Virus genome (UHGV): UHGV-1390708
From: a virus
Strand: one strand, 5' to 3'
Length of the DNA stretch: 40,460 bases
In this document: in pieces, positions 1 to 38,565 of the stretch
Layout: each line of letters starts with the position of its first letter
Numbering within the stretch: the stretch's first letter is position 1
Translations under genes and position numbers: made by a program
The notes under the pieces: generated by a model
The model's database searches: none
The model's input: the letters and a program-made list of their open reading frames with translations, nothing else
Told to the model about the DNA's origin: nothing

Positions 1-423
1 GTGCGATTTTGCTTAGAGTCCGAAGACTGGGGTGCCTTAAGGAATTGTCTATGACTCATCAAGTACCATGGACTTAGGGTTTGATAGGAGGGTTCATTAG
101 GAGGGGAAAAATAACAGGATAGTTGCTTGTCACGGGGTTAAGGACTCTCAAATAGTAGATCAAAACCGTGGTCCTACATCAAATAGGCCGACGTCACCAG
201 TGGCGGGGCAGCAGTATTACGATTCAACATTAGGGCTGCCTATTTGGTGGAATTCAGTTAGCGGCACATGGAAGAGAGCAGATGGTGTAGATGCATAACA
301 GAAAACTGGTGAAAATTCACCCGTGTGTTTAATCCAAGCCTCAATCGATCGATACTTGCGGTAGTTGATGAGAAAAACTCTGGCACACAAAGCTTTGCGC
401 TATTCGAAGGTGGTTAAAGCTGA

Positions 424-1581
424 TCACTCCACCTTTTCATCAAGCCAGTCCGCCCACCACTGCATCATTTCTCTGCGCTTATCGAGATACTGAGCATGGT
501 TGTAAATTCCGCGCACAGATCCGCCGTTGGCATGTGCAAGTTGCACTTCAATAGCATCAGCAGGCCATTCGTGCTCGTTCATAATCGTGCTGAATTCATG
601 CCTGAATCCGTGACCGCTTTCCAGGCCCTCATAGCCGATTCGTTTGATCACAAGTAATACCGCGTTCTCGCAGATTGGCTTCTTCTTATCGTTGCGCCCG
701 GAAAAAACAAACTCTGATACTTGTTTGGTGATTGAGCTTAGCGTAGTGAGAAGTTCAATCACCTGGTCTGACATAGGAACAACATGAATTTTGCGTCCCT
801 TCATCACACTGGCGTCGATGGTGATAATCCTGTTTTCAAAATCGACGTTCTTCCATTGCATGGAGCGAAGCTCTTTCGTTCTTAGGGCTGTGTAGCGTAA
901 AACTTTGGTCGCAATGAGCGATACGATACTTCCTGAAAATGTTGCCAGTGCTTTGTTGAATGCCGGGATCTGGTCGGCAGGTAAAAATGGGAAGTTCTTC
1001 TTGCGGTATCCCTTCATGGCGTCTGCAAGGTCAGGTGCCGGGTTGTATTTAGCCCTTCCGGTGACAATAGCGTAACGGAAAACTTCGCCGCATCTTCTGC
1101 GGGCTTTGTTGGCTCGCTCCATTGCACCGCGATCTTCAAACCTGCGGATTACTTCCAGCAGTTGCATCGGCTCAATATCCTGAATCTCAAGACCGCCGAT
1201 GATGGGTAAAATGTCGTCATCAAACATTTTGGCAAGTTCAGTCGCATAGCCTACTGACCAGACTTGCTTCTTGTGCTCGTACCATTCTTTGTAAATCGCA
1301 CTAAAGGAATTGTTGTTAGACGAAGCCTTTTTCGCCTTTACCGGATCGATGCCAACCGAGATGTCTTTCCTCGCAGTCCATGCCTTATCCCTTGCCTCCT
1401 GCAAAGTCATTAGCGGATATTTTCCTACGGTCAGGACTTTCTCCTTACCGTCAATCTTGTAGCGAAGCTGCCATACCTTTTTCCCGGATACAGGGACATA
1501 AAGGTACAGGCCATTACCATCTAGAAGGCGGTATGGTTTTTCTTTCGGCTTTGCTGCTTCAATCTGCTTAACGGTGAGCAT
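424..1581 (-). CDS. int: Tyrosine integrase, P4/IntS-like. It is 385 aa from the Met at 1581; the track ORF extends to 1617.
   Basis: N-terminus MLTVKQIEAAKPKEKPYRLLDGNGLYLYV is a DUF4102-type arm-binding domain. The C-terminal catalytic region contains HGFRHEFST. It lies about 160 nt from an argW-type att core. Length and start fit my recollection of KplE1 IntS. Confidence 0.9.
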   Translation of the reverse strand: MLTVKQIEAAKPKEKPYRLLDGNGLYLYVPVSGKKVWQLRYKIDGKEKVLTVGKYPLMTLQEARDKAWTARKDISVGIDPVKAKKASSNNNSFSAIYKEWYEHKKQVWSVGYATELAKMFDDDILPIIGGLEIQDIEPMQLLEVIRRFEDRGAMERANKARRRCGEVFRYAIVTGRAKYNPAPDLADAMKGYRKKNFPFLPADQIPAFNKALATFSGSIVSLIATKVLRYTALRTKELRSMQWKNVDFENRIITIDASVMKGRKIHVVPMSDQVIELLTTLSSITKQVSEFVFSGRNDKKKPICENAVLLVIKRIGYEGLESGHGFRHEFSTIMNEHEWPADAIEVQLAHANGGSVRGIYNHAQYLDKRREMMQWWADWLDEKVE

Positions 1582-1626
1582 GGGTAAAAATCCGGTGGGT
1601 AAAATTATTTTATCCACTTTTTACCC
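1582..1626. repeat. Three copies of WTTTTACCC (two inverted, one direct) on the int side of the att core. Candidate Int arm-type or RDF binding sites.
   Basis: gggtaaaaa at 1582-1590, gggtaaaat at 1597-1605 and tttttaccc at 1618-1626, read directly. Confidence 0.5.
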
Positions 1627-1741
1627 GTCATGGAGTGCGGCTGTCAACGATCTGAAGCGAACCATGACGAACTGTGAATCTACTGAAGGCTTGATATTCA
1701 GGGGATTTTGCGGACTGGTACGGATGGGAGCGAACTGATAA

Positions 1742-1757
1742 ATGGTGTCCCCTGCAG
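1742..1757 (-). other. attP: attP core. Its reverse complement, CTGCAGGGGACACCAT, is the 3' end of a tRNA (argW-type) acceptor stem plus ACCA.
   Basis: atggtgtcccctgcag is read directly. It is flanked by int on the left and xis on the right, and neither flank continues as a tRNA. Confidence 0.75.
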
Positions 1758-1815
1758 ACATCTACTTGAAGCAGCAGGGGATTGATTGGAATGGTGTTTT
1801 TTAGATGTGAGAAAT

Positions 1816-1836
1816 ATTTTACCCGCTATTTTACCC
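1816..1836. repeat. Two direct ATTTTACCC repeats 12 bp apart on the xis side of the att core.
   Basis: attttaccc at 1816-1824 and at 1828-1836. The second copy overlaps the xis stop codon. Confidence 0.5.
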
Positions 1837-2031
1837 ATTGGCGCGGCTTAAGAGCTTATTTTTGAATTCACAATGGTCACGATATAACCATCTTGCTCGC
1901 CCGTGGATAACTTTGGCTTTTGGCAGGTCGCCGGACTTAATCCGGTCATAGATGAAGGTTTTACCGAAGCCAGTATCGGCCATGATGAATTTCAAATCAA
2001 CCAGTGAATCAGGTTGTAGTTCGTGTTGCAT
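1831..2031 (-). CDS. xis: Excisionase / recombination directionality factor, TorI-like (AlpA-type winged helix), 66 aa.
   Basis: Sequence MQHELQPDSLVDLKFIMADTGFGKTFIYDRIKSGDLPKAKVIHGRARW matches my recollection of KplE1 TorI. It is adjacent to the att core, with GGAG about 10 nt upstream of the ATG. Confidence 0.85.
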   Translation of the reverse strand: MQHELQPDSLVDLKFIMADTGFGKTFIYDRIKSGDLPKAKVIHGRARWLYRDHCEFKNKLLSRANG

Positions 2032-2050
2032 GAGTGCTATCTCCGAATAG

Positions 2051-2066
2051 GGAATCGAACCTGCAA
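2051..2066 (-). other. Isolated tRNA T-arm fragment. Its reverse complement is TTGCAGGTTCGATTCC.
   Basis: Contains the canonical T-loop GGTTCGATTCC. No matching 3' T-stem or acceptor stem is adjacent. Confidence 0.6.
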
Positions 2067-2073
2067 ATCAGGC

Positions 2074-2099
2074 AAGAAAAAACCGCCATCAGGCGGCTT
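2074..2099 (-). terminator. Intrinsic terminator upstream of xis on the minus strand.
   Basis: Minus-strand hairpin GCCGCC-TGAT-GGCGG followed by TTTTTTCTT. Confidence 0.6.
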
Positions 2100-2256
2100 G
2101 GTGTTCTTTCAGTTCTTCAATTCGAATATTGGTTACGTCTGCATGTGCTATCTGCGCCCATATCATCCAGTGGTCGTAGCAGTCGTTGATGTTCTCCGCT
2201 TCGATAACTCTGTTGAATGGCTCTCCATTCCATTCACCTCTGACTCGGAAGTGCAT
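2089..2256 (-). CDS. Small conserved lambdoid early-left protein, 55 aa (MHFRVRGEWNGEPFNRVIEAENINDCYDHWMIWAQIAHADVTNIRIEELKEHQAA).
   Basis: Not in the track because it is under 60 aa. GGAGA lies 7 nt upstream of the ATG at 2256. The stop falls inside the terminator hairpin. Confidence 0.6.
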   Translation of the reverse strand: MHFRVRGEWNGEPFNRVIEAENINDCYDHWMIWAQIAHADVTNIRIEELKEHQAA

Positions 2257-2328
2257 TTATCATCTCCATAAAACAAAACTCGCCGTAGCGAGTTCAGATA
2301 AAAGAAATCCCCGCGAGTGCGAGGATTG

Positions 2329-2418
2329 TTATTGTCTTTTCTTCGTGCATTTGTCGCACTTTCGGCACCATCCAGATAGGCACATCCGTCCGCAATTAAC
2401 ACATATAGGCCACATCAT
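2329..2418 (-). CDS. Cys-rich mini-protein, 29 aa (MMWPICVNCGRMCLSGWCRKCDKCTKKRQ).
   Basis: Its ATG overlaps the stop of the upstream gene (ATGA). It has paired CxxC motifs. Confidence 0.35.
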   Translation of the reverse strand: MMWPICVNCGRMCLSGWCRKCDKCTKKRQ

Positions 2419-2696
2419 TTTTCCTCTTTTGGTTTATGAATCTGAATGGTCATGCCGCTTTGAGTGGTGACTACAATGACAGAACCAGGCTGAAGGCTGT
2501 TAAGATTGAATGCTTCGTAAAACGAATCCAAGGCCAGCGCTTTTTTATTCTTTCGGTTCCACCAACGCCATCCCTTGCTACAGGCTACACTGACAATCCA
2601 CTGCCCACTCCTGTAAGCCATATAAAACCAGATGAGCAAAACCTGAAGGAATGCTATCCAGTCAATAATCGTATATTTCGCGAAGGAGTCCATCAC
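2415..2696 (-). CDS. Hypothetical single-pass membrane protein, 93 aa.
   Basis: ATGA overlap with the upstream gene. Hydrophobic segment WIAFLQVLLIWFYMAY. Confidence 0.6.
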   Translation of the reverse strand: MMDSFAKYTIIDWIAFLQVLLIWFYMAYRSGQWIVSVACSKGWRWWNRKNKKALALDSFYEAFNLNSLQPGSVIVVTTQSGMTIQIHKPKEEK

Positions 2697-3550
2697 TTCA
2701 CCTCCTGCTGCGGTGCTGCTGGCATTTCACGCCAGTGCGTAACTGAGTGCGGATCCGGATATTCGGTGCCATCATCCCAGCGATTGCCATTCCACATTGC
2801 AGACCACATCTCACCGTCTTCATACATGACCATTACCGGAATTAACTTATCCGGCATTCGCTCACTACAGCTTATCCAACCATCCGGAGTTACCGGAACT
2901 TGCGGAATGGCTGTCTGCTCTCGAACGTCATTAGGCGCTATAGGTTCTGCTGCCAACTGACTGGCATATTTGTTAATGGTAACGATAAGCTCTTGCTCAG
3001 CCTCATCCAGACAATCACCGATACCTCGCCTGTCACCGTCAAAATCATCGAAATCGGCACGAATCTTGGCAACCTTCTGGATTGCGGACAACACCTCACT
3101 AGGAATTACCGGATAGTTGGTTGACGTTTCCGCGATTTCACGAAAATTATTGGTTGACGAATTCTTGTTTTCCCGAAAGTTTCCGGACTGAAACATGGCT
3201 GCGCGATAGGCGTTCCAGCCGACAGCTTTTCCGTGTTCAAACGCGCTGTCAAAGTCATCATCCATTTCCATCGCATCAGGCACAGATACCGTCTCTGGAG
3301 GGGCGGCGTAAAGCGGAGTTACGGTAATTTCGTATTCGTTAATATCTTCATCGCTGATAGATGCATCAAAGCTTAAAAAGCCAGGTCTACCGAGACCACG
3401 GGCCTGTGCGTCCTGGATGATGTACGCCACAGCCTCAGCTTCGAGCGATGCCAGTGCGATACGCGCCAGCTCCCTTTCTTCTGACGCGGTTGGCTCAGGA
3501 CCGTTGCCGAGGAAAATTTCTTGTGCGCGCTTTTTGGTAATTGTGCTCAT
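2693..3550 (-). CDS. DUF551-domain early protein, 285 aa.
   Basis: The C-terminal segment WISCSERMPD...THWREMP resembles DUF551. ATGA overlap with the upstream gene. Confidence 0.65.
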   Translation of the reverse strand: MSTITKKRAQEIFLGNGPEPTASEERELARIALASLEAEAVAYIIQDAQARGLGRPGFLSFDASISDEDINEYEITVTPLYAAPPETVSVPDAMEMDDDFDSAFEHGKAVGWNAYRAAMFQSGNFRENKNSSTNNFREIAETSTNYPVIPSEVLSAIQKVAKIRADFDDFDGDRRGIGDCLDEAEQELIVTINKYASQLAAEPIAPNDVREQTAIPQVPVTPDGWISCSERMPDKLIPVMVMYEDGEMWSAMWNGNRWDDGTEYPDPHSVTHWREMPAAPQQEVK

Positions 3551-4314
3551 GATGTCTCTCCTTTACCGGCTGCGGCGCGGTCTATGCGTTCAATTTCGGC
3601 CAGAATAAGTGCGCCAGCTTTCACAAGGTCACGACGCGGCCCAGATTGCTTCCACCAATCAGGAGCCCACGGCCAATGCGCTGGCGTTGAGAGGCCTTGA
3701 TTGTGTGCGTTAATCGCATAGCAAGCTGCAGCATCTGCCAGCTCACTGTTTTGATAGGCGTCGTCATGCTCCGATGTCCAACCCTCAACAGCCCTCTGCC
3801 GCTGACGTTCTGATATCACATCCAGAAGTGCAGGATTGAACGCCAGCACCTCCAGTTCAGCAATCCGCTTCTCTGCGGCTTCCAGCTTCTCGCGCATATC
3901 GTCAACGTACTCGACCAGAGATCCGCCAGCAGGAATTTCGCATTCCTCGACCAGTTGGAAGTAGATATCAGCTGCGGCCCGTGTGTTGCTATGCCTAGCG
4001 TCGCCCATCTCACCTTCACGAAGAGCATCGCGTTCGGCGGTAAGATTGGCTATTTTGCTGTCTTTGCCTTCCAGCTCAACGCGCAGCCTCCCAACCGTAA
4101 GCGCAATATCCTCGTTCTCCTGGTCGCGGCGTTTGATGTATTGCTGGTTTCTTTCACGTTCATCCAGCAATGCCAGCGCGATATCTGGCGAAAAGTGCTT
4201 CATAAAATCGTTAAGCGCATTAATTCGCTGATCGAAAGGCATTACAGGTGCTTCACCAGCAATTTTTGTTTTTTCAGCGATTTCACGAAGCTTTTGATAA
4301 TCAATCTTGCTCAC
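3547..4314 (-). CDS. Ead/Ea22-like early protein, 255 aa, with a GTG start.
   Basis: Coiled-coil N-terminal half. Conserved C-terminal segment EGWTSEHDD...WPW...RRDLVKAGALILAEIERIDR. GTGA overlap with the upstream gene. Confidence 0.55.
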   Translation of the reverse strand: MSKIDYQKLREIAEKTKIAGEAPVMPFDQRINALNDFMKHFSPDIALALLDERERNQQYIKRRDQENEDIALTVGRLRVELEGKDSKIANLTAERDALREGEMGDARHSNTRAAADIYFQLVEECEIPAGGSLVEYVDDMREKLEAAEKRIAELEVLAFNPALLDVISERQRQRAVEGWTSEHDDAYQNSELADAAACYAINAHNQGLSTPAHWPWAPDWWKQSGPRRDLVKAGALILAEIERIDRAAAGKGETS

Positions 4315-4781
4315 TGGTTGCCTCCTTTGCGAAGCTCTGCAGCGAAATATACAGCTGCGGAAACAATAGCTGCATGTCGGTACTCACCATCAGAAAATAA
4401 AGAATCTCCCTTAAGTGCATTGACGATACTCTGATGATTTTTTGCCAGCATCTCCACGCCCTGCGCCCGTACTTCAGCCAGAAAAGCATCGGTGGCTTGG
4501 GTTTCGATATCGTTAATTTCAGGAAGAATCTCTTCCCATGTAGCGATATCGCCATTCAAATGCCATCCGGCAATTCCACTGGAGTTATCCGCAACACTCC
4601 GAACGGCTTCAATAGTTTCATGCATTGCCGCATTCTCCGCTGCCAGCGCCGCGCACTTGGCCTCCGCTTCAGCAAATTTACGCACCAGATACTCAGCATT
4701 TGTTTCGTTAACCTTTAAATCACTTGGGATGCATTTACCTTTCAGGAATCCATCCATCTCAATTAGTGACATTTGTTTCAT
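4311..4781 (-). CDS. Hypothetical early protein, 156 aa from [11 protein letters not shown].
   Basis: The start was chosen at the ATGA overlap with the upstream small ORF. The track start at 4799 is the alternative. Confidence 0.6.
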
Positions 4782-4942
4782 TTTTTCCCACTCCTCCACA
4801 TCGCATTCAGATATTTGTTGTCATTAACAGAACCGAAACTATTTCTCTTAAGAAATTCCTCTCTCGATGGCATTGGCTTTACGCGTTGGCGAATAATCAT
4901 TTCTGCCGGAAGAATGCCGGGATTGTATGCAAGTCCTCTCAT
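4778..4942 (-). CDS. Hypothetical small protein, 54 aa ([34 protein letters not shown]...).
   Basis: It has ATGA overlaps at both ends and fills an otherwise empty gap. It is under 60 aa, so it is absent from the track. Confidence 0.45.
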
Positions 4943-5229
4943 GATTTACTCTCCACGAACTTGTCAATAGCCATGCTAAGTGACACACCTAAAGTCTCGA
5001 TATGTTGCTGAATATCCTGTAGCGTCTGCGCCTGAGATAACAGGATTTCACGGTTGCATAACTCTTTGACCAGATGCTCAAACTTGCTGTAATAACCGAT
5101 ACGACTTAGTGTTTCTTTCCCTGCATTCTCGCCTTCTTTGATAATTCCTCTTTCGCTAAGAATCAGGTCGTGTTTGGTTCCGGTAATAACGTATTTTCCG
5201 AGGTCGATGTTTAGCTTCATTGTTTTCAT
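4939..5229 (-). CDS. Hypothetical early protein, 96 aa from [13 protein letters not shown].
   Basis: GAGGA Shine-Dalgarno sequence upstream of the ATG at 5229. The longer track ORF would overlap the upstream gene. Confidence 0.6.
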
Positions 5230-5239
5230 TGTTAATTCC

Positions 5240-5536
5240 TCAGTCATTACTGATAGCGCCATAGCGTGAGCGGTAATTACGCAGGCGTGGGTCGATATAT
5301 TCAGGGAAGTGGGTATATGTGGCTTTGCGGAATGGTCGGATTGATGTCTGGTAAATTCGCTCTCGTTCTTCTTTCTCTGCAAGCCATATACAGTGGCGAA
5401 ATTCCTTTTCCTCTTTCGTTTCCTGCGGTAGCGACATTATCCGATCGTAGTTTTTTCTGAATTTATCCAGCACCTCCGATACGGAATTGCCGGAACAGCG
5501 GCGCGGGTCATCCGCACCATACAGAGGCGCTGGCAT
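5240..5536 (-). CDS. Hypothetical 98-aa protein. Its size and its position next to the recombination module fit P22 Abc2 (anti-RecBCD), but this is unverified.
   Basis: AAGGA Shine-Dalgarno sequence. It lies downstream of erf and ssb in the pL operon. The function is from recollection only. Confidence 0.35.
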   Translation of the reverse strand: MPAPLYGADDPRRCSGNSVSEVLDKFRKNYDRIMSLPQETKEEKEFRHCIWLAEKEERERIYQTSIRPFRKATYTHFPEYIDPRLRNYRSRYGAISND

Positions 5537-5559
5537 AATTAAATCCTTATTTTTCTAAA

Positions 5560-5943
5560 TCAGAATGGGATGGAATCGTCGTATACAGGAGTGTTCTGCT
5601 GGTTACTACTTTGCTGCTGCGGGCCATTTCCTGAAGCTGCAAATCCAATCTTTGCATTCAGTAATTCAAGAGTGATTGATTGACCATTTTGCCCCTGATA
5701 AACATCAACCCTGATGTTTTCTCCGGTAATTTCCACAATGCCACCTTCAACAAGAACACTACGGTAGTAATCCGCTTGCGCTCCCGGCTTGGCAAATACA
5801 ACGGCGCTGTAGTTTGTCCATTCTTTCTTTTTTGTCTGGCGATCGTAATACTGAACGCCAGCACGGATGTTGAATCCGATATTTTCCCCGGCCTGAAACT
5901 CTCTTGCGGGCTTGTTTAGTCTTACAGTAATCGAATGTGCCAT
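5560..5943 (-). CDS. ssb: Short single-stranded DNA-binding protein, 127 aa, with an acidic C-terminal tip DDSIPF.
   Basis: Gln/Ser-rich linker followed by a ...VYDDSIPF tail, like E. coli SSB DDDIPF. TAATG junction with erf. Confidence 0.65.
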   Translation of the reverse strand: MAHSITVRLNKPAREFQAGENIGFNIRAGVQYYDRQTKKKEWTNYSAVVFAKPGAQADYYRSVLVEGGIVEITGENIRVDVYQGQNGQSITLELLNAKIGFAASGNGPQQQSSNQQNTPVYDDSIPF

Positions 5944-6548
5944 TAAGCAGCCGCTCCTTCTAATTCGTCTCGTCTGATGTTGTAAACGTCCTGCGCTTTG
6001 TGCTGCTCCGGTGTGCCTTCGAGCAGCTTCCACGCTTTGGCGAACGCCTGTTTAAGCTCTTCTACGGTGTTTTTCTGCATTGCTGCGTCAGTGAATGCTT
6101 TTAGAACCTGTTCAGGTGTAGGTGATGGTTTTGATTGCTTTGCTGCTGCGTTCTGCTGATGTTTATGCTCGTCTGTATCTGCATCTTTCGCATCATCTAT
6201 GCCGAACAAACCATTGAGGCAATACTTGCGTGCATAAGAGCTTGTAGCTCCCGTAACTTGTGCAGAATCCATTCCTTTCTTGCTTTCTTCCTCTCGTGCT
6301 AGTGCGGTTGCCGTATGACTGTTTTCGCCATCGGTAATAGTTGCCGTGGCTTTCACATAATACCGATCACCAATCAACACAACTTCATCGCTGATTGATA
6401 AAAACAGGCCATTCAGTAACGGCTTAACGCCTTCAAGAATGTCTTCGCAGCTTCTGTATTTATATTTTCCGAATGAGTTGTACTGATTCTTTGGCGCGTT
6501 CAGATTCTCCTGAATAGCTGCCAGTCTTGCGTAAAATTCTTTGCTCAT
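5943..6548 (-). CDS. erf: Erf single-strand annealing recombinase, 201 aa from MSKEFYARL.
   Basis: N-terminus MSKEFYARLAAIQENLNAPKNQYNSFGKYKYRSCEDILEGVKPLL matches my recollection of P22 Erf. The track start at 6578 is a TTG codon. Confidence 0.9.
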   Translation of the reverse strand: MSKEFYARLAAIQENLNAPKNQYNSFGKYKYRSCEDILEGVKPLLNGLFLSISDEVVLIGDRYYVKATATITDGENSHTATALAREEESKKGMDSAQVTGATSSYARKYCLNGLFGIDDAKDADTDEHKHQQNAAAKQSKPSPTPEQVLKAFTDAAMQKNTVEELKQAFAKAWKLLEGTPEQHKAQDVYNIRRDELEGAAA

Positions 6549-6558
6549 ATGATTGTTC

Positions 6559-6663
6559 TCAGAATGGACATGGCCCAAGGAAATAACGCTGATTTAATAC
6601 TTCAGTCTTTGCCGCATTTAAAAATACGCGAACACCTTCACGATCTCCCTTCTGGCGATACAT
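6559..6663 (-). CDS. Possible 34-aa ORF in the arf position, immediately upstream of erf.
   Basis: Runs from the ATG at 6663 to a TGA 10 nt before the erf ATG. It overlaps the 3' end of the neighbouring ORF. Confidence 0.25.
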   Translation of the reverse strand: MYRQKGDREGVRVFLNAAKTEVLNQRYFLGPCPF

Positions 6664-6808
6664 TAACGCCTGCTGCGTGTACATGCGTCTCTGTAACTTG
6701 CTCTCCTTCACTGTGGTTGCAAGTGACATGAATATCTCCTTCGTTACCGATTAATTCTTTCATCTGACGAATGAATTCTTCGTCTGACCAGTTATCTGTA
6801 AAACTCAT
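6638..6808 (-). CDS. Hypothetical acidic small protein, 56 aa (MSFTDNWSDEEFIRQMKELIG...).
   Basis: ATGA overlap with the kil stop codon. Confidence 0.5.
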   Translation of the reverse strand: MSFTDNWSDEEFIRQMKELIGNEGDIHVTCNHSEGEQVTETHVHAAGVNVSPEGRS

Positions 6809-6957
6809 TTCCTGCGATACCACGGAAGGTTGATAGCTGATTTCATCGCTTTATTTGCTTCAATCCACATTTTTGAATCACCAATAAATCTGGCTATTAC
6901 TGCTTTGTTCTGTGCTGCACGAAGCATCTGGTGATTGATGGCTATTTCATTGCGCAT
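6805..6957 (-). CDS. kil: Kil-like host cell-division inhibitor, 50 aa.
   Basis: MRNEIAINHQMLRAAQNKAVIARFIGDSKMWIEANKAMK. The ARFIGDSKMW segment resembles lambda Kil ATFIGDEKMF. GAGG Shine-Dalgarno sequence. It lies downstream of cIII. Confidence 0.55.
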   Translation of the reverse strand: MRNEIAINHQMLRAAQNKAVIARFIGDSKMWIEANKAMKSAINLPWYRRK

Positions 6958-7073
6958 AATAAGACCTCAACTCTTTTCCATCCGTCACGTAATTTACGGG
7001 TGATTCGTTCAAGTAAAGATTCATTTAGTTGGAAGGCACCCATGCGAGCGCCTCCCGCGATTGCGTAAATCAT
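6942..7073 (-). CDS. cIII: CIII, FtsH (HflB) inhibitor, 43 aa.
   Basis: MIYAIAGGARMGAFQLNESLLERITRKLRDGWKRV contains the conserved lambda CIII core ESLLERITRKLRDGWKR. AAGGAA Shine-Dalgarno sequence. Confidence 0.8.
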   Translation of the reverse strand: MIYAIAGGARMGAFQLNESLLERITRKLRDGWKRVEVLLCAMK

Positions 7074-7097
7074 GGGTGGTTCCTTATGTTGGTTTTA

Positions 7098-8066
7098 TTA
7101 GTAGGTTATTTTTGTTGCGAATACTTCGCCTTTTACGATGGCTGTTATGATATTTTTAGCAACATCTTCTGATGCGCCAACCTTGATAAGGTCAGCAAGT
7201 ATTTTGTTATTTACTTCTTTCCGGTGAGCTTTATCCTTTGCTCTACGCTCTTCTTCGTCCTTGATTCTTTTTTCTTCTGCTATTCTGGCTTGCTCTTTTG
7301 CTTCAGCCTCGCGACGGATTCGTTCAGCCTCCTCCTGTGCTTTTCTGCGTTCTGCTTCAATTGCTGCCTGCTTTTCTCTTTCAGCTCGTTCTGCTGCCTC
7401 TTTTGCTTCGCGCTGTGCTCGTTGCTCGGCTTCAATGCGTTCACGCTCTGCACGTTCCGCTGCGGCCTTAGCTTCTGCTTCTCGCCTTGCTGCTGCTTCA
7501 ATTTCGGCTTTTGCCTTTGCTTCGGCTTCTGCTCTGGCTTTCTCTTCAGCTTCTCTTTTTAAGCGTTCTTCATGCTCTCGCTTTTCCTGCTCCGCTTTGA
7601 GTCTTGCCTCTTCTCTTTGGCGGTCAAATTCGCGATCCATCAAAATCGCTATTTCATGGTCAGACTCAATTTGCTTTGCGAGAGCTTCAGCTGCTGCCTT
7701 AGCTTCTTCTTCGGCTTTAATCCGTGCCTGCTCCTCCTCATAATCAGTAAGAGGCTGGCGCGCCTTGGCTTTCAGTTCATCAAGGCGATCGCGCACTGTC
7801 TTGCGGTTGGCATCAATTAGCTTTGGAATTTCCTTCAGTTCAGCAACAAGGTCTTTGCCAAGACCATCGAGATATGTTTTCGTCTGCGCAACTTTATACG
7901 CCAGAGAAGCGATCTCCTTTCTGCCCTTTGCCGTTGTGATATCAGGCACAAAGGACATAACTTCACGTTCAACCTTTTGAAGGATTTCTTCAATCTGGTC
8001 GGCAGACTGAAATACAGTCATTGCATTTGCTTTTTCAATAACAACTAAATCTGTTACTTCACTCAT
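7098..8066 (-). CDS. Large coiled-coil protein, 322 aa from MSEVTDLVV. It has a globular N-terminal domain (possibly DUF1351-like), a long E/A/K/R low-complexity helix and a short C-terminal domain.
   Basis: GGAGG Shine-Dalgarno sequence before the ATG at 8066. About 150 aa of EAEAKAKAEIEAAARREAEAK-type sequence. Confidence 0.6.
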   Translation of the reverse strand: MSEVTDLVVIEKANAMTVFQSADQIEEILQKVEREVMSFVPDITTAKGRKEIASLAYKVAQTKTYLDGLGKDLVAELKEIPKLIDANRKTVRDRLDELKAKARQPLTDYEEEQARIKAEEEAKAAAEALAKQIESDHEIAILMDREFDRQREEARLKAEQEKREHEERLKREAEEKARAEAEAKAKAEIEAAARREAEAKAAAERAERERIEAEQRAQREAKEAAERAEREKQAAIEAERRKAQEEAERIRREAEAKEQARIAEEKRIKDEEERRAKDKAHRKEVNNKILADLIKVGASEDVAKNIITAIVKGEVFATKITY

Positions 8067-8077
8067 ATATCCTCCGT

Positions 8078-8107
8078 CAAAAAAATTGCCCTCACACTGG
8101 AGGGCAA
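8078..8107 (-). terminator. Intrinsic terminator inside the pL operon (tL-like).
   Basis: Minus-strand hairpin TTGCCCTC-CAGTGT-GAGGGCAA followed by TTTTTTT. Confidence 0.7.
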
Positions 8108-8241
8108 AGAAGATTTCCAATAATCAGAACAAGTCGGCTCCTGTTTAGTTACGAGCGACATTGCTCCGTGTATTCACTCGTTGGAATGAATACACAGCGC
8201 AGTGTTTATTCTGTTGTTTATGCCAAAAATAAAGGCCACCA

Positions 8242-8442
8242 TCAGGCAGCCTTGTTATTCTGTTTACCAAGTTCTCTGGCAATCATTGCCGTCGTTCGTA
8301 TTGCCCATTTATCGACATATTTCCCATCCTCCATTACAGGGAACATTTCTTCAGGCTTAACCATGCATTCCGATTGCAGCTTGCATCCATTGCATCGCTT
8401 GAATTGTCCACACCATTGATTTTTATCAATAGTCGTAGTCAT
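8242..8442 (-). CDS. ral: Ral restriction-alleviation protein, 66 aa.
   Basis: MTTTIDKNQWCGQFKRCNGCKLQSECMVKPEEMF... matches my recollection of lambda Ral. It sits in the N-to-cIII interval. Confidence 0.7.
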   Translation of the reverse strand: MTTTIDKNQWCGQFKRCNGCKLQSECMVKPEEMFPVMEDGKYVDKWAIRTTAMIARELGKQNNKAA

Positions 8443-8512
8443 ACGGATAGTCCTGGTATTGTTCCATCACATCCTGCGGATGCTCTTCGAACTCTTCAAA
8501 TTCTTCTTCCAT
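8426..8512 (-). CDS. Lambda orf28-like acidic mini-protein, 28 aa (MEEEFEEFEEHPQDVMEQYQDYPYDYDY).
   Basis: Hand-translated. Its size and its position between N and ral match lambda orf28. Confidence 0.45.
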   Translation of the reverse strand: MEEEFEEFEEHPQDVMEQYQDYPYDYDY

Positions 8513-8570
8513 ATCTCACCTCAAATAAGTGGTTTGCTGCCTAATTTCATTTTCTGGCGACCAACACAAG

Positions 8571-8843
8571 TCATCTTGCTGTCAGTTGTTTTGATTTCCG
8601 GTAGCCTGCCGCGTAAATGGCTACGTTTGGCAGGCAAATACTTCCACTGCATTCATCTGCCTTCTTGCAGCGAAGGCTTCCGAGTGATGCTGCTTTGTCT
8701 GCTCTGACGCAACTAGAGATCTTTAGCGCAATTTTTCGCGCAAGTCTCTGCTCTTGCATTGCCTGTTCACGTTGAGCCTGCCTGCGTGCTCTGCGGCGAT
8801 TTCTGGCGTTATCGTCAGCCAGATATGTAATGACTACTGTCAT
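8571..8843 (-). CDS. N: N-family transcription antiterminator, 90 aa, with an N-terminal arginine-rich motif.
   Basis: Arginine-rich motif DDNARNRRRARRQAQREQ. The C-terminal AIYAAGYRKSKQLTAR resembles the P22 gp24 / phi21 N tail. GGAGG Shine-Dalgarno sequence. It is the first gene downstream of pL and nutL. Confidence 0.8.
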   Translation of the reverse strand: MTVVITYLADDNARNRRRARRQAQREQAMQEQRLARKIALKISSCVRADKAASLGSLRCKKADECSGSICLPNVAIYAAGYRKSKQLTAR

Positions 8844-9200
8844 GTTGACCTCCGATGATTGACTTTGGTGGTGACGCGCCGGGTGCTTATCTTCCGGTTG
8901 CCGTCGTGCAGCTGCACTTCACGTCACCCCAAAGCCAACTACTCTTTGACTCACACTCTCGCAGTGAGCGCGCTCATGCCCTTGAGTCTCTGTCGCTTAT
9001 TAGCCGCTGATAACCGGTGCGCGTCTGGCATTCGCGCTGCCTTTCCGGAGCATGTTCCCTTATTTACCCTCACATCGGTCTGCTAAACCTGCTCGCCATT
9101 ACGCGACTCGGGGCAGCATCATTACTGCTGCATTGCCTTTCGGCTGCGGTCTAACCGCGTTAGTGCACCATTACGGCACCTCCTGTTTGGTTAAACTCAG

Positions 9201-9242
9201 TTCCCGCATTTCGGCGGGACAATCCCATCAATGTTAAAGAGC
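9201..9242 (-). promoter_or_regulatory. nutL: nutL: boxA GCTCTTTAACA (9232-9242) plus a boxB hairpin (9201-9220).
   Basis: The minus strand reads GCTCTTTAACA-N12-GTCCCGCCGAAATGCGGGAA. The same boxA and boxB recur at nutR. Confidence 0.75.
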
Positions 9243-9288
9243 CTGCCAATCTGTTCCGTTTGGCTACCAGCGTCCTGCTGATGGCTTA

Positions 9289-9374
9289 AAGATAACTTAG
9301 GTTATAGGTGTGGTCAATAACCTAATTTATATTTTGTGGTAAATAAGTTATAAGTGATGGATAACAAAGGTATT
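9289..9374 (-). promoter_or_regulatory. OL: pL (-35 TTGACC at 9312-9317, -10 TATCTT at 9289-9294, 17-nt spacer) with OL operators.
   Basis: Operator sites are ATAACttagGTTAT (9292-9305), ATAACctaaTTTAT (9317-9330) and a degenerate ATAACaaagGTATT (9361-9374). Confidence 0.7.
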
Positions 9375-9496
9375 TTATTTTTGTAAATGTTGCTGATTGA
9401 TTGGTGTTTGAGGGCTTGCGTGCGGGGTGAAGGTGTTACCTTTGGCTTGATGCTTGTCTATGATGATGATGGGTGATTGGGTGGTGAACGGCAGGA

Positions 9497-9530
9497 AAAG
9501 AAAACCCGGCGCTGAGGCCGGGTGTTTTTA
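9497..9530 (-). terminator. Intrinsic terminator after the cI-linked moron. The hairpin has T-runs on both strands.
   Basis: CCCGGC-gctgag-GCCGGG. The minus strand continues TTTTCTTTTCC. Confidence 0.75.
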
Positions 9531-9824
9531 GTCTTTTCTTTTGCTTAGCATTTCGTCGATTTCTAAGTCAATACGATATTGATCTATTGCTTTTCTCTCG
9601 TTTGGGGTTGGTATTTTATACTGTTCAATTAGATCTGTTGTGTATTTTATTTCATCTAATGTGATTTTTATATCAGAGAGAATCTCTTTTATATCAATTA
9701 GATGCTCTTCTTCTTTTGCGCGATTAGAGCTATGTTCAATCACTTGAGATAGCTTTTTACTAATGCTTAGCAAAACAAAAAGAATGATGACCAAAACAAC
9801 AACAAAAACTATCAGAAATTCCAT
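9528..9824 (-). CDS. Membrane-anchored coiled-coil protein, 98 aa, family unknown. A lysogen-expressed moron in the rex position.
   Basis: GGAGGG Shine-Dalgarno sequence 3 nt before the ATG, 40 nt after the cI stop. N-terminal TM segment EFLIVFVVVLVIILFVLLSI followed by a charged helical region. Clearly AT-rich relative to the flanks. It has its own terminator. Confidence 0.75.
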   Translation of the reverse strand: MEFLIVFVVVLVIILFVLLSISKKLSQVIEHSSNRAKEEEHLIDIKEILSDIKITLDEIKYTTDLIEQYKIPTPNERKAIDQYRIDLEIDEMLSKRKD

Positions 9825-9864
9825 TATCCCTCCGCACTTCCGTAAGTCTTCTTCTGATTATCGG

Positions 9865-10572
9865 TTACCAACTATGAGACGACCAGAATACTCTGCCAAT
9901 AATCCTTACGGTTTCATGAAATTCATCTCTATCCATTACTTCATCCGGGTACTCTTCGCGATTTATTGATCTGATTATCACCGATGTAGGGGTGGCGATT
10001 AATGTTTTTACTCGTAACAAATCAGACTGGCAAATAGCGTAGGTTTTACCATCTCTGATGGTGGTATCTTGCGTGTTAACACCAACAACATCGCCATCGT
10101 GAAGCGTTGGTTCCATGCTTTGCCCTACAACCCTAACTAGCTTGGCTGATCTTTCAGATACTCCCATCTTTTTCAGATAGTGCTTTCTGAAAACCAAAGA
10201 GAACTCCGATGATTCCTCTAGCTCGCAGCTACCGCTTCCAGCTGAAAGCGAAACGTTAAGAAGAGGCAACGCAACAAACTCGTCATCGTTTCTTTTAATG
10301 TCTTCCCATACCACAGCTTTTAAAGATGACTCACGGACATTGGATGGTTCTTCATGTGCACCATCCCTCATTTCACCAATACCAGAACTAAGCCATTCAG
10401 GGCGCACTTTTAAAGCATTGGCTAATTCAACCATCTTGCGAGATCCGTTTGTTTTACCGGACGACATCTTCTGTATGGCTGGCTGAGATATTCCAACCAT
10501 GTCAGCAAGCTGTGATTGTGATACCCCTGCTGAGCTCATGGCTGCATTTAGTCTTTCTGCGAATGTTTTCAT
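9865..10572 (-). CDS. cI: CI-type prophage repressor (HTH_XRE plus S24 LexA-like autopeptidase), 235 aa from MKTFAERLN.
   Basis: HTH segment SQSQLADMVGISQPAIQKMSSG. Ala-Gly candidate cleavage site in LSAGSG. Ser in GQSMEPT and Lys in LRVK. The track start at 10602 is a TTG codon inside an operator. Confidence 0.85.
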   Translation of the reverse strand: MKTFAERLNAAMSSAGVSQSQLADMVGISQPAIQKMSSGKTNGSRKMVELANALKVRPEWLSSGIGEMRDGAHEEPSNVRESSLKAVVWEDIKRNDDEFVALPLLNVSLSAGSGSCELEESSEFSLVFRKHYLKKMGVSERSAKLVRVVGQSMEPTLHDGDVVGVNTQDTTIRDGKTYAICQSDLLRVKTLIATPTSVIIRSINREEYPDEVMDRDEFHETVRIIGRVFWSSHSW

Positions 10573-10584
10573 ACCCACAAATCT

Positions 10585-10650
10585 ATAACTACGGTTATCC
10601 AAAGTAAAATAACAAAGGTTATTGCTATTTTTTATAACTTGAGTTATCTT
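10585..10650. promoter_or_regulatory. OR: OR: three 14-bp operators ATAAC-N4-GTTAT interleaved with pR and a candidate pRM.
   Basis: Perfect sites at 10585-10598, 10609-10622 and 10634-10647. pR has -35 TTGCTA (10622-10627) and -10 TATCTT (10645-10650), 17-nt spacer. Candidate pRM -10 is TATAGA (minus strand, 10582-10587), 9 nt from the cI ATG. Confidence 0.75.
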
Positions 10651-10683
10651 TGGTTATAAGTAATGACCACAAGAGGTATGCTC

Positions 10684-10908
10684 ATGAATTTAGTAATTCA
10701 ACGAGCCTTGAAAATTGTCGGTAGCCAAAAGCGCCTTGCCGACAAGTGTGGTGTAACGCAGCCAGCAGTACACAAATGGCTGAAAGGCGGGTTGGTCTCT
10801 CCAGAGAAAGTTACCGCCATCGTTAACGCCACTGGAGGGCAGATCAAGGCTTACGAAATTCGCCCCGATTTGCCACACCTGTTTCCAAAACCGAATCAGG
10901 CAGCATAA
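10684..10908 (+). CDS. cro: Cro-type HTH repressor, 74 aa from MNLVIQRAL.
   Basis: AAGAGG Shine-Dalgarno sequence 7 nt upstream of the ATG at 10684. HTH segment QKRLADKCGVTQPAVHKWLKG. It is the first gene after pR. Confidence 0.8.
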   Translation: MNLVIQRALKIVGSQKRLADKCGVTQPAVHKWLKGGLVSPEKVTAIVNATGGQIKAYEIRPDLPHLFPKPNQAA

Positions 10909-10915
10909 GTAACAC

Positions 10916-10960
10916 CGCTCTTTAACAGTCATGGTCCTCATTCCCGCCGAAATGCGGGAA
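10916..10960 (+). promoter_or_regulatory. nutR: nutR: boxA CGCTCTTTAACA plus boxB hairpin TTCCCGC-CGAAAT-GCGGGAA (10941-10960).
   Basis: Read directly. The boxB sequence is the same as at nutL. Confidence 0.75.
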
Positions 10961-11007
10961 TACAACGCGCATAAGTTGATGCGCATAACTTCTTATTTGC
11001 TAAGGAA

Positions 11008-11040
11008 ATACTTACATATGGTTCGTGCAAACAAACGCAA
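11008..11040 (-). promoter_or_regulatory. pRE: pRE: CII-binding TTGC-N6-TTGC (11027-11040) and -10 AAGTAT (11008-11013).
   Basis: The minus strand reads TTGCGTTTGTTTGCacgaaccatatgtAAGTAT. This is lambda-type and overlaps the cII start. Confidence 0.75.
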
Positions 11041-11311
11041 CGAGGCTCTAAGAATCGAGAGTGCGTTGCTTAACAAAATCGCAATGCTTGGAACTGAGAA
11101 AACAGCGGAAGCTGTGGGAGTTGATAAGTCGCAGATCAGCAGGTGGAAGAGGGACTGGATTCCAAAGTTCTCAATGCTGCTTGCTGTTCTTGAATGGGGT
11201 GTCGTTGACGACGACATGGCCCGATTGGCACGACAAGTTGCTTCGATTCTCACCAATAAAAAACGCCCGGCGGCAACCGAGCGTTCTGATCAAATACAAA
11301 TGGAATTTTAA
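11018..11311 (+). CDS. cII: CII transcriptional activator, 97 aa.
   Basis: MVRANKRNEALRIESALLNKIAMLGTEKTAEAVGVDKSQISRWKRDWIPKF is lambda CII as I recall it. Confidence 0.9.
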   Translation: MVRANKRNEALRIESALLNKIAMLGTEKTAEAVGVDKSQISRWKRDWIPKFSMLLAVLEWGVVDDDMARLARQVASILTNKKRPAATERSDQIQMEF

Positions 11312-11333
11312 CAACATCCAGCGAGGTAATTAT

Positions 11334-11606
11334 ATGCGAAACAAAGGCTTTAATCCACCTGATACACACAAAGAAGCTAAGCGTTTGCGCTTCCTTCGTT
11401 CCATTGATGAAAGAACTCAAATATCTTTTGTGAAAGTTGCCAGAACTGAGCTTCTGAAGGCTGAGGCGAGGGCGTTGCTCCCGTCTCTACCAAAAGAGGA
11501 GGGGTATACGTTCATTCCAAACGCATTTCTGGAAAAGCTGCTCAAAGAAGACATATCCGTAAGTCAGTTTAACGATGTTCTTAAGGTCTTTCGTCAAGGC
11601 AGGTAG
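11334..11606 (+). CDS. Hypothetical protein, 90 aa, between cII and the replication genes.
   Basis: GAGG Shine-Dalgarno sequence 8 nt before the ATG at 11334. The stop abuts the next gene's start. Confidence 0.6.
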   Translation: MRNKGFNPPDTHKEAKRLRFLRSIDERTQISFVKVARTELLKAEARALLPSLPKEEGYTFIPNAFLEKLLKEDISVSQFNDVLKVFRQGR

Positions 11607-11608
11607 TT

Positions 11609-12556
11609 ATGAGCAATACAGCAAAAATCTACGATTTCAGCGCCGCACACGAGCGCAGGAGCAACAGGATGGAGAACCAGAAAACTGGTTACATTCCGTT
11701 GTACCGGAGCATTCTGAAACAGTCATGGGCGAAAGATGTTTATCTTCGCACCCTGTGGGAAAACCTTCTCCTGAATGCCGCCAGAAAGCCATACAAAGCG
11801 AATTTCAAAGGTCATGAATGGCATCTGCAACCCGGTCAACTGGTTGTGACAGCAGCTGATTTAGGTCTTCAGTTATGCGACAGGCATGGCAAGCCAGCAA
11901 GCCGCGATCAGGTTGAGCGGATGCTTCAGGTTTTTGTGAAAGAGGGGATGATCTCCATTGATGGAGAGAAGCAAAAAGGTCGTGTGATCACCATCACAAA
12001 TTACCATGAATATGCTCAAAAAATGGACAATTCACCCGCACATGAAGCCGCACAAACAACCGCACATGACGCCGCACATGACGAAGCCAGTAATGGCGCG
12101 GCTTTCAGCGTACATGCCGCACATGAAAGCGCACATGAAGCCGCACAAACAACCGCACATCATGAACAAGAAGGTATTAACAAGAATATAAATAATACCC
12201 CCCTACCCCCCAATGGGGGAGGCGATGGGCAGGTTAAACCTGAACGTCGCAAGGCAGAACGAATCGACTACGAATCCTTCCTGAACGCCTACAACACCGA
12301 AGTCGGTGACAGACTGCCACACGCTGTTGCGGTCAACGAGAAACGCAAACGCCGCCTGAAGAAAATCATCCCGCAACTGAAAACGCCAAATGTGGACGGT
12401 TTCAGAGCGTATGTCAGGGCGTTTGTGCATCAGGCCAAGCCGTTTTACTTCGGAGACAACGACACGGGCTGGACGGCTGATTTTGATTACCTGCTGAGGG
12501 AAGACTCGTTAACGGGAGTTCGGGAAGGGAAGTTTGCAGACAGGGGGATTGCATGA
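11609..12556 (+). CDS. Replication initiator (functional analogue of lambda O / P22 gp18), 315 aa, carrying the origin iterons.
   Basis: It lies upstream of the DnaB-type helicase. A central His/Ala-rich linker is encoded by direct repeats. The N-terminal part looks like a winged-helix domain. Confidence 0.7.
12036..12200. repeat. ori: Putative ori: eight CGCACA-core iterons in two clusters, followed by an AT-rich tract.
   Basis: CCGCACATGA-type repeats begin near 12036, 12048, 12059, 12071, 12116, 12129, 12141 and 12153. A 28-nt segment, acatgaagccgcacaaacaaccgcacat, is duplicated exactly. An AT-rich tract follows at 12172-12197. Confidence 0.65.
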
Positions 12557-13929
12557 GACAGGATATCGAAGCGAGCGTTATCGGTGGCCTGCTGATTGGT
12601 GGATTAACTCCAACCGCCAGTGACGTTCTGGCAACGCTTGAGCCGGAAGCGTTTTCAATTCCGCTCTACCGGAAAGCCTTCGAGGTTATCCGCAAGCAGG
12701 CGCGAAACAGAAACCTAATCGACGCGCTGATGGTTGCCGAGGCGTGCGGAGAGGAGCATTTCACGTCAATCCTGATGACCAGCAAAAACTGCCCGAGTGC
12801 CGCAAACCTGAAGGGATATGCCGGAATGGTCGCGGATAACTATCACCGCCGTCTGGTGCTGGACATCATGGATGAAATGCGTGAACCAATTCAGAGCGGA
12901 ACCATCGACGCATCGAGTCAGGCGATGGATGAACTTGTAAAGCGTCTTTCAGCCATCAGAAAGCCCCGTGACGAGGTTAAACCTGTACGGTTAGGGGAAA
13001 TCATCACTGACTACACTGACACGCTTGACAGGCGTCTGAGGAACGGAGAAGAGTCAGATACCCTGAAGACCGGAATCGAAGAACTTGACGCTATCACCGG
13101 AGGGATGAACGCTGAAGACCTGGTGATTATCGCCGCTCGTCCTGGTATGGGGAAAACCGAACTGGCGCTAAAGATTGCCGAAGGTGTTGCAAGCCGCGTT
13201 ATTCCTGGTTCTGACGTCCGGCGCGGAGTATTGATTTTCTCGATGGAAATGAGCGCATTGCAGATTGCAGAGCGGAGCATTGCCAACGCCGGGAGGATGT
13301 CGGTTAGCGTACTGCGAAATCCTGCATCGATGGATGACGAGGGCTGGGCACGTGTTGCTAACGGCATGAGTCAGCTTGCAGATTTGGATGTATGGGTAGT
13401 CGATGCCTCGCGGTTATCGGTCGAAGAAATACGCTCAATCGCAGAACGGCACAAACAGGAAAATCCAAACCTGTCACTCATCATGGCGGATTATCTTGGC
13501 CTGATTGAGAAGCCGAAAGCAGATCGCAACGACCTTGCAATTGCTCACATCTCCGGAAGCCTGAAGGCGATGGCGAAAGACCTGAAAACACCGGTTATCT
13601 CCCTGAGTCAGCTTTCGCGCGATGTTGAGAAGCGACCAAACAAACGCCCGACAAACGCAGATTTGCGTGATTCAGGAAGCATTGAGCAGGACGCAGACTC
13701 AATCATCATGCTCTATCGGGAAGCGGTATATGACGAGAACAGTAGCGCCGCGCCATTTGCTGAAATCATCGTGACGAAAAACCGTTTTGGTTCACTTGGT
13801 ACGGTTTACCAGCGGTTCTGCAACGGACACTTTGTTGCATGTGACCAGGATGAAGCCAGACAGATTTGCACAACATCAAATGCACCCGCTGCACGTGGCA
13901 GACGATATGCACAAGGGGCTGACGTATGA
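12553..13929 (+). CDS. DnaB-family replicative helicase (P22 gp12-like), 458 aa.
   Basis: Walker A motif ARPGMGKT, a DnaB C-terminal-type motif and an ATGA overlap with the initiator gene. Confidence 0.9.
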
Positions 13930-18090: not shown

Positions 18091-18119
18091 TTGACTTTTT
18101 GAATAAAGTTGGGTAAATT
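18091..18119 (+). promoter_or_regulatory. pR': pR' late promoter (-35 TTGACT, -10 TAAATT, 17-nt spacer) with the qut region.
   Basis: TTGACTttttgaataaagttgggTAAATT is lambda-like. Confidence 0.85.
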
Positions 18120-37839: not shown

Positions 37840-38565
37840 ATGACTTTTAAGAATGTAGCAAACATCGGATCCGTTGTCACGGATAAAACCATTGACAGCC
37901 AAAGTCTTCTGATGATGGTTAATGAAGCTCGCAAGTTATGTGGAGAGCCATCAGTACGTAACAACAAATTCATCGAGAAAATTGAGGATGAATTGGAGGG
38001 CGAGACCTACACAAAAAGTGTAGGTCGGAAAAACGGGGCTGACATTGATGTTATCTCCATGACTATCAAGCAGGCGCTTCGTGTTGCTGCTCGCGAATCT
38101 AAAGCAGTTCGCCGAACACTTGTAGACAAACTTGAAAGTATGCAGGAAGCACACATTAAAAGCGGTAAATCAGCGAGTGGACTTGTTGAGTATCGTCAAG
38201 CGCGAACATTGAAAATGACGGTTGAAGCTGTTACCAATCTGTTCGATCTGATGCCAAATCTTGCGCCTGAGGCAAAGCAGACTGCGGCAGCAAGCATAAT
38301 CAACCCGATCGTTGGTTTTAATGCAATACCTCTTCCAGCAATAGAAGAGCATTACTACTCAGCAGGGGAGGTTGCAGAGCAGCTTGGAGTAACGGCCAAC
38401 AAGATTGGTCGCATTGCTAACGCAAACAACCTCAAAACTGAGCAGTACGGCAAGTTCTTCCTAGATAAATCTGCGCATTCCAGCAAACAGGTAGAGGCGT
38501 TCCGCTACAATGCGGAAGGTGTTAAAGCACTACAACACCTGATTCATGGGAGTAATGTTGCATAA
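37840..38565 (+). CDS. Second antirepressor-like / phage regulatory protein, 241 aa from MTFKNVANIG.
   Basis: AAGGA Shine-Dalgarno sequence. The C-terminal YYSAGEVAEQLGVTANKIGRIANANNL is HTH-like. The family assignment is uncertain. Confidence 0.4.
   Translation: MTFKNVANIGSVVTDKTIDSQSLLMMVNEARKLCGEPSVRNNKFIEKIEDELEGETYTKSVGRKNGADIDVISMTIKQALRVAARESKAVRRTLVDKLESMQEAHIKSGKSASGLVEYRQARTLKMTVEAVTNLFDLMPNLAPEAKQTAAASIINPIVGFNAIPLPAIEEHYYSAGEVAEQLGVTANKIGRIANANNLKTEQYGKFFLDKSAHSSKQVEAFRYNAEGVKALQHLIHGSNVA

Follow-up and report, generated by a model that had tools for sequence, protein, structure and literature searches.

Near the start of the window, a 40,460-nt stretch of viral DNA (UHGV virus genome UHGV-1390708) analysed at its full length, an integrase gene, a short block matching the 3′ end of a tRNA and an excisionase gene lie next to one another. 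The short block, the attP common core, occupies positions 1742–1757. The plus strand reads ATGGTGTCCCCTGCAG there; the reverse complement, CTGCAGGGGACACCAT, consists of the last 15 nt of the argW tRNA-Arg(CCU) plus one further nucleotide (T), and so covers part of the T-stem, the acceptor 3′ strand and the ACCA. ARAGORN identified K-12 argW as a tRNA-Arg with anticodon cct and found no tRNA gene anywhere in the window. A preliminary description of the window, made from the letters alone, had read 1742–1757 as a tRNA 3′ end with ACCA, which proved exact to the base; its reservation that the core might match no host tRNA 3′ end falls away with the match to K-12 argW. The core is present in a single copy in the window, even when two mismatches are allowed (0.02 copies expected from dinucleotide-preserving shuffles), and an exact match to a given 16-mer is expected about 2×10^-5 times by chance in 40 kb.

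A three-way alignment of the window with the argW-attL-intS and torI-attR regions of K-12 MG1655 showed that the block common to all three is exactly the 16 bp CTGCAGGGGACACCAT. The preceding base is T in attP and attR and C in the tRNA, while the following base is T in attP and attL and C in attR. Strand exchange with attB must fall inside this 16-bp core. The same 16-mer has been published as the core of the KplE1 element (PMC2951348), and the GenBank records of HK620 and Sf6 carry the attP core label on the same 16 bp, confirming the module named in the preliminary description. In phage Kapi1, the 17-bp att site AATGGTGTCCCCTGCAG corresponds to window positions 1741–1757, and deletion of attB abolishes Kapi1 integration at the argW site (PMC8787464).

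On one side of the core lies intS (424–1581, minus strand), which is transcribed away from it. The gene encodes a tyrosine integrase of 385 aa from an ATG at 1581, 98% identical (379/385) to K-12 IntS, with the Pfam domains Arm-DNA-bind_3, Phage_int_M and Phage_integrase. A mechanically called variant of this open reading frame (ORF) starts at a GTG at 1617 and would encode 397 aa. Beyond the integrase gene, the intergenic region towards the tailspike gene (332–395) is 96.9% identical to HK620 38233–38297, where a terminator is annotated at the end of the HK620 record. Across the core from intS, and in the same orientation, lies torI (1831–2031, minus strand), which encodes a recombination directionality factor (excisionase) of 66 aa. 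The 66-aa ORF matched no family in NCBIfam or Pfam; its identity as TorI comes from a search of PDB sequences, in which all 66 residues were identical to the Tor inhibition protein (1Z4H). Its counterparts are hkaC in HK620 and gene 18 in Sf6. The intS ATG lies 160 nt from the core and the torI stop codon (1831–1833) 73 nt from it, in good agreement with the roughly 160 and 75 nt estimated earlier, and the genes on both sides are indeed those of a phage. Upstream of torI, a terminator-like hairpin is predicted at 2080–2099 (minus strand); it adjoins the position of the cII-dependent integration promoter of HK620, equivalent to 2038–2076.

The P′ arm of the site, on the int side (1582–1741), is nearly identical to the attL arm of K-12, and the P arm, on the xis side (1758–1836), shows no difference from the attR arm of K-12 or from HK620 and Sf6. 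Arm-type repeats of 8 bp (TTTTACCC/GGGTAAAA) lie at 1582–1589, 1597–1604 and 1619–1626 in the P′ arm, together with a degenerate copy (TTTTATCC) at 1608–1615. In the P arm, TTTTACCC is found at 1817–1824 and 1829–1836. The 8-mer occurs eight times in the window against 1.2 expected, and five of these copies lie within 1582–1836, three in the P′ arm and two in the P arm. The HK620 record annotates an attP repeat at the equivalent of 1815–1837, and attP repeats and an excision promoter at positions corresponding to the P′ arm. The P′ sites of IntS have been described with a TAAA motif (PMC2951348), which the window repeats contain. We regard the 8-mers as putative arm-type IntS sites on both arms.

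The P′ arm also contains the PintS promoter, on the minus strand, with a −35 hexamer TTGACA at 1642–1647 and a −10 hexamer TAAAAA at 1618–1623, found by direct search and matching those given for the KplE1 module (PMC2951348). A promoter scanner did not call PintS because of its 18-nt spacer and its TAAAAA −10 hexamer. No match to the IHF consensus (WATCAANNNNTTR) was found in 1560–1900. An 8-bp inverted repeat links core and P arm, with GCAGGGGA at 1774–1781 in the arm and its partner TCCCCTGC at 1748–1755 in the core. An ORF of 46 aa spans the core (1698–1838, minus strand) and would be split by integration. It is annotated as hkaB in HK620 and as gene 17 in Sf6; its coding status is doubtful, because no family match was found.

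The IntS/TorI module in related elements

The closest counterparts of the locus are those of HK620 (AF335538, core at 1368–1383) and Sf6 (AF547987, core at 18099–18114), both P22-like podoviruses. Their 16-bp cores are identical to that of the window, and the 541 nt from the start of int to upstream of torI (window 1560–2100) are 99% identical, so that the alignment with argW and with the Sf6, HK620 and KplE1 att regions suggested in the preliminary description bears out the assignment. Both phages share the order int (minus), attP, hkaB-like ORF and torI (minus) as well as the arm repeats. Around attP, they differ from the window only by a few point differences in the P′ arm; elsewhere their genomes are mosaics of another composition, with a different type of tailspike. 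KplE1 (CPS-53) of E. coli K-12, the experimentally dissected member of the group, has the same core, an IntS of 98% identity, an identical TorI and near-identical arms. However, it is integrated and a defective remnant, with attL (argW-intS) and attR (torI-pawZ) 10.2 kb apart, whereas the window has both halves united as attP within a full-length phage genome. Kapi1 (MT813197), like the window, has its attP between int and xis, and it integrates at the 3′ end of argW (PMC8787464). The Kapi1 record has been opened at the att site, whereas the break in the window falls in the tailspike gene.

A more distant relative, the Klebsiella phage vB_Kpn_Chronis (MN013086.1), is 77% identical and keeps the int/att/xis layout with diverged flanks. 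Most of its arm repeats are retained, some with one change. Its core matches only over the 12 nt GTGTCCCCTGCA, with different flanks, which may point to a slightly different attB in Klebsiella. Phage lambda has the same elements as the module described here, namely a tyrosine integrase with arm-type and core-type sites, a recombination directionality factor and a requirement for IHF. In lambda, int and xis both lie on one side of attP, remain together in the prophage and are co-transcribed (PMC2951348). Here, by contrast, attP lies between the two genes, so that integration uncouples them.

The mechanism of this module is known for the family, and the near-identity of the locus suggests that it would operate in the same way at the attP of the window. 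IntS would act as a heterobivalent tyrosine integrase, its N-terminal domain binding the TTTTACCC-type arm repeats and its catalytic domain the core. [quoted passage not shown] As the core is situated between torI and intS, which share an orientation, integration would place intS beside argW (attL) and torI at the far end beside dsdC (attR). The only promoter remaining to the integrated intS would then be its own in the P′ arm, which IntS and TorI repress, and excision would depend on TorI binding in attL and hence be governed by TorI expression. The protein binding, promoter use and recombination activity in this scheme are taken from the literature, as are the autoregulated intS promoter in attL and the control of excision by TorI; recombination dependent on IntS, IHF and TorI has been demonstrated for KplE1 and HK620 substrates (PMC2951348). 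The core, the gene layout and its consequences for the regulation of int and xis were already published for KplE1, HK620, Sf6 and Kapi1, and the present locus leaves the understanding of site-specific recombination unchanged.

The window as a P22-like genome and its ends

The gene content of the window is that of a mosaic P22-like genome: int, torI, the early-left region, immunity, replication, lysis, terminase, portal, coat, ejection, immI and tailspike. Pfam searches, in part on identical contigs, detected the P22-type portal and coat proteins, gp4/gp10, the ejection proteins gp7/gp20/gp16 and the P22 head-binding domain of the tailspike. The best DNA matches were CUS-3, HK620, Sf6 and Kapi1, and no phage record covered 80% or more of the window. 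The proteins of the phage were found only in metagenome contigs from ENA and Logan, and a 258-aa ORF with a GTG start had no entry. One of these contigs (ERZ27289373 k141_36424, 40,349 bp) is 100% identical to window 135–13550, straight through attP. Altogether, four contigs from four ENA assembly records (L005, L006, L007 and L009) span int, attP and torI at 99.9–100% identity.

Both ends of the window fall within the tailspike gene. The 3′ part, its last 66 codons (EGKNN...GVDA, stop), lies at 101–298 on the plus strand and corresponds to the C-terminus of a 587-aa homologue (P0001). The 5′ part, with the first 423 codons, lies at 39191–40460 (plus strand) and runs off the window end; it is 98% identical to the homologue and contains a Pfam Head_binding domain at aa 4–114. 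About 294 nt of the gene (codons 424–521) are missing between the window ends. Read from its sequence, the window is a single genome length in permuted form, with the break inside the tailspike gene. The normal tailspike ORF continues for 37 nt beyond the window end in one contig (L030) and directly upstream of position 101 in another (L009). With the tailspike uninterrupted in this way, an intact circle would measure about 40.65 kb. There is no terminal overlap between the window ends and the contig is not closed, so the circularity of the genome is inferred, not seen. In several assemblies, contigs end at or near the same two points of the tailspike gene, which we read as branch points of the assembly graph.

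The E. coli genome that encodes the tailspike homologue was considered as a possible integrated twin of the window and rejected. Its P22-like prophage abuts different host genes and has no integrase gene on the tailspike side.

Window positions 1–100 are not tailspike coding sequence and appear foreign to the phage. Contig L007 (ERZ1031114 NODE_1538, 4980–5906) extends them by 927 nt. Searches of IMG/VR and of JGI metagenomes did not find the left-end sequence of the window in exact form. The foreign stretch, at least 1,027 nt long, is interrupted by stops in every frame and has G-depleted, C/T-rich tracts and TTAGGG-like motifs. No credible long ORF was found in it, and it matched nothing in the E. 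coli genomes and gave no Rfam match at the gathering threshold or at E ≤ 1. Its only phage match is that of the far 64 nt of L007 to an unrelated, GC-rich human-gut contig (MT835749). This DNA may be an insertion variant or an assembly chimera.

Configuration of the attachment site

We compared the window with integrated and free forms of related phages. In a BLAST search with the 14-kb argW region of K-12, the attL side matched window 332–1757 and the attR side 1742–2081, so that the two matches overlap only in the core. No match to yfdC, dsdC or the 5′ part of argW was found in the window; a third, weak match (72%), of CPS-53 prophage DNA to window 4643–4760, is irrelevant to the att question. 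Records of prophage form (CUS-3, phiv205-1, VT2phi_272 and many chromosomes) likewise have matches that end at 1757 or begin at 1741–1743. Virion-derived genomes, among them HK620, Sf6, Dewey and HF4s, match unbroken through the core.

The gene order of integrated relatives, whose set included isolate genomes retrieved via a widespread 73-aa protein, shows the same division: tailspike-intS-argW-yfdC-mlaA at one end of the prophage and dsdC-torI at the other. In the K-12 prophage CPS-53, intS is the first gene and torI the last. An attP between int and xis is known to leave the two genes at opposite prophage ends after integration (PMC8787464; PMC3509656), and the separation claimed in the preliminary description accordingly holds for CPS-53 and agrees with the Kapi1 study. 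In the window, the P and P′ arms are contiguous around one core. The homology split at the core, the gene order in the integrated relatives and the literature together place the window in the attP configuration. Positions 1742–1757 are therefore very probably the attP core that belongs to the IntS/TorI module of a temperate, P22-like (Lederbergvirus-type) coliphage, here in its non-integrated configuration. As for the DNA from which the contig was assembled, we infer that it was most likely free, replicating or packaged phage rather than a chromosomal junction. The unintegrated form proposed earlier is supported rather than proven by the split homology and by the lack of a tRNA and of argW-flanking host genes. 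The two further signs of a free genome to which the preliminary description had pointed gave a mixed outcome: host flanks are absent from the window, while closure of the contig was not found.

The main alternative, also raised in the preliminary description, is that the junction marks the border between two copies within a head-to-tail tandem prophage (polylysogen) at argW, with int from the first copy and the DNA from torI onward from the second, and that the window is chromosomal DNA. Such arrays exist. Of 5,426 complete E. coli genomes, 1,899 gave a match to the att region with a 261-nt probe centred on the core, and only 17 of these have it in intact form. Five of the 17 intact sites are on small extrachromosomal records, two of which are of 39,448 bp; these five are taken to be excised or circular phage genomes. 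The remaining 12 are chromosomal, and their genomes each have three att places, the intact junction being accompanied by attL and attR. In E. coli no107 (NZ_CP075374.1, 1.55–1.60 Mb), P22-like prophages lie head to tail at argW in the order tailspike-gtrABC-intS-junction-torI...tailspike-gtrABC-intS-tRNA-Arg-yfdC. This is exactly the tandem layout, and a segment cut from it could not be told apart from the window, which begins just upstream of int and ends in the tailspike gene, as an array slice would.

Several observations nevertheless make a tandem origin improbable. The arrangement is rare, with 12 intact chromosomal junctions among the 1,899 carrier genomes. No host flank was found in the window or in its near-twin contig, and the proteins of this phage are known from metagenome contigs only. 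The clustering of contig ends at two tailspike positions points to breaks in the assembly graph, not to an arbitrary slice. In addition, judging from the behaviour of short-read assemblers, attL and attR in amounts equal to attP should have produced a branch in the graph at the core, and the contigs are unbranched. About 0.6% of carrier genomes have tandem arrays at argW, so that finding attP intact in an assembled sequence argues strongly, though not conclusively, for a free phage.

One prophage copy of the no107 tandem is full of frameshifts. In another strain, E. coli CPww7 (NZ_CP075716.1), P2-like tail genes and an invertase adjoin a P22-like genome in permuted form; this looks like a rearrangement or a misassembly.

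It is less plausible still that the joined state arose in handling, either because a prophage was excised in silico between its att cores and then closed into a circle or rotated, or through an assembly join across the ends. The foreign-looking positions 1–100 and the 64-nt match of L007 to unrelated gut DNA do imply some chimerism near contig ends. However, four separately assembled metagenome contigs cross int, attP and torI at near-complete identity, the junction is base-for-base the attP of the virion-derived HK620 and Sf6, and a 16-bp core is too short to cause an assembly join at k=141. A chance match to a tRNA 3′ end without att function can practically be dismissed, given the small number of matches expected at random, the IntS, TorI and conserved arm repeats that flank the core, the prophage records that break exactly there and the loss of Kapi1 integration at the site upon attB deletion (PMC8787464).

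With the attP reading retained, the window can be annotated as the nearly complete genome of a temperate P22-like phage, in attP form. Its predicted integration site in E. coli and Shigella lies between yfdC/argW and dsdC, and the core fixes the start and end of a prophage of this type.

A second argW segment upstream of torI and other features

The preliminary description had stated that no tRNA sequence continues from the core. This is correct for the directly adjacent DNA, but the next 16 nt of argW are present elsewhere in the window. This T-arm 16-mer, TTGCAGGTTCGATTCC, has a single exact match in the window, at 2051–2066 on the minus strand, 19 nt upstream of the torI start codon. In argW, it abuts the core, overlapping its first base; in the window, the P arm and torI come between the two. 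The phage thus has all of the final 31 nt of argW, as two pieces (2051–2066 and 1742–1757). The 16-mer is also found upstream of torI in K-12 KplE1, HK620 and Sf6, and is absent from the Klebsiella phage vB_Kpn_Chronis.

We considered the T-arm 16-mer as a second crossover site and rejected it: a chimeric argW/torI junction, as such a crossover would leave, was found in none of the 5,426 complete E. coli genomes. A functional role in a second crossover is essentially excluded, and the 16-mer is probably an evolutionary relic. More speculatively, T-arm and core might be the fossil of an ancestral, contiguous attP identity of about 31 bp with a T-loop-type crossover, into which the excisionase gene and the P arm were inserted later; we hold this to be possible, though on balance unlikely. 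If true, the split block of about 31 bp would record the origin of the unusual layout with attP between int and xis.

The 16-mer also appears in the record of phage CUS-3 (CP000711.1), where the features labelled 'attL core' and 'attR core' at the two ends are TTGCAGGTTCGATTCC and not CTGCAGGGGACACCAT. With the cores labelled on the T-arm 16-mer, the record ends at the equivalent of window 2051, without torI and the P arm. This end is probably a misplaced prophage boundary.

A different use of argW is seen in the Stx2 phage record VT2phi_272 (HQ424691.1, 1–2834), in which an IntS-type integrase gene and argW are followed by a second integrase gene on the 5′ side of the tRNA. The 25-bp 'attL' of this record overlaps the tRNA 5′ end, a sign that the opposite end of argW may serve a different element.

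Two repeat arrays were observed in other parts of the window. Within the 340-aa ORF at 7098–8120 (minus strand), degenerate in-frame direct repeats of 27–37 nt extend over 7268–7712; in a relative, the gene at this position carries a TolA-like annotation. Inside the gene for replication protein O (11609–12556), four direct repeats of about 31 nt (CGCACATGAAGCCGCACAAACAACCGCACAT) occupy 12037–12160 and look like the iterons of a lambda-type origin.
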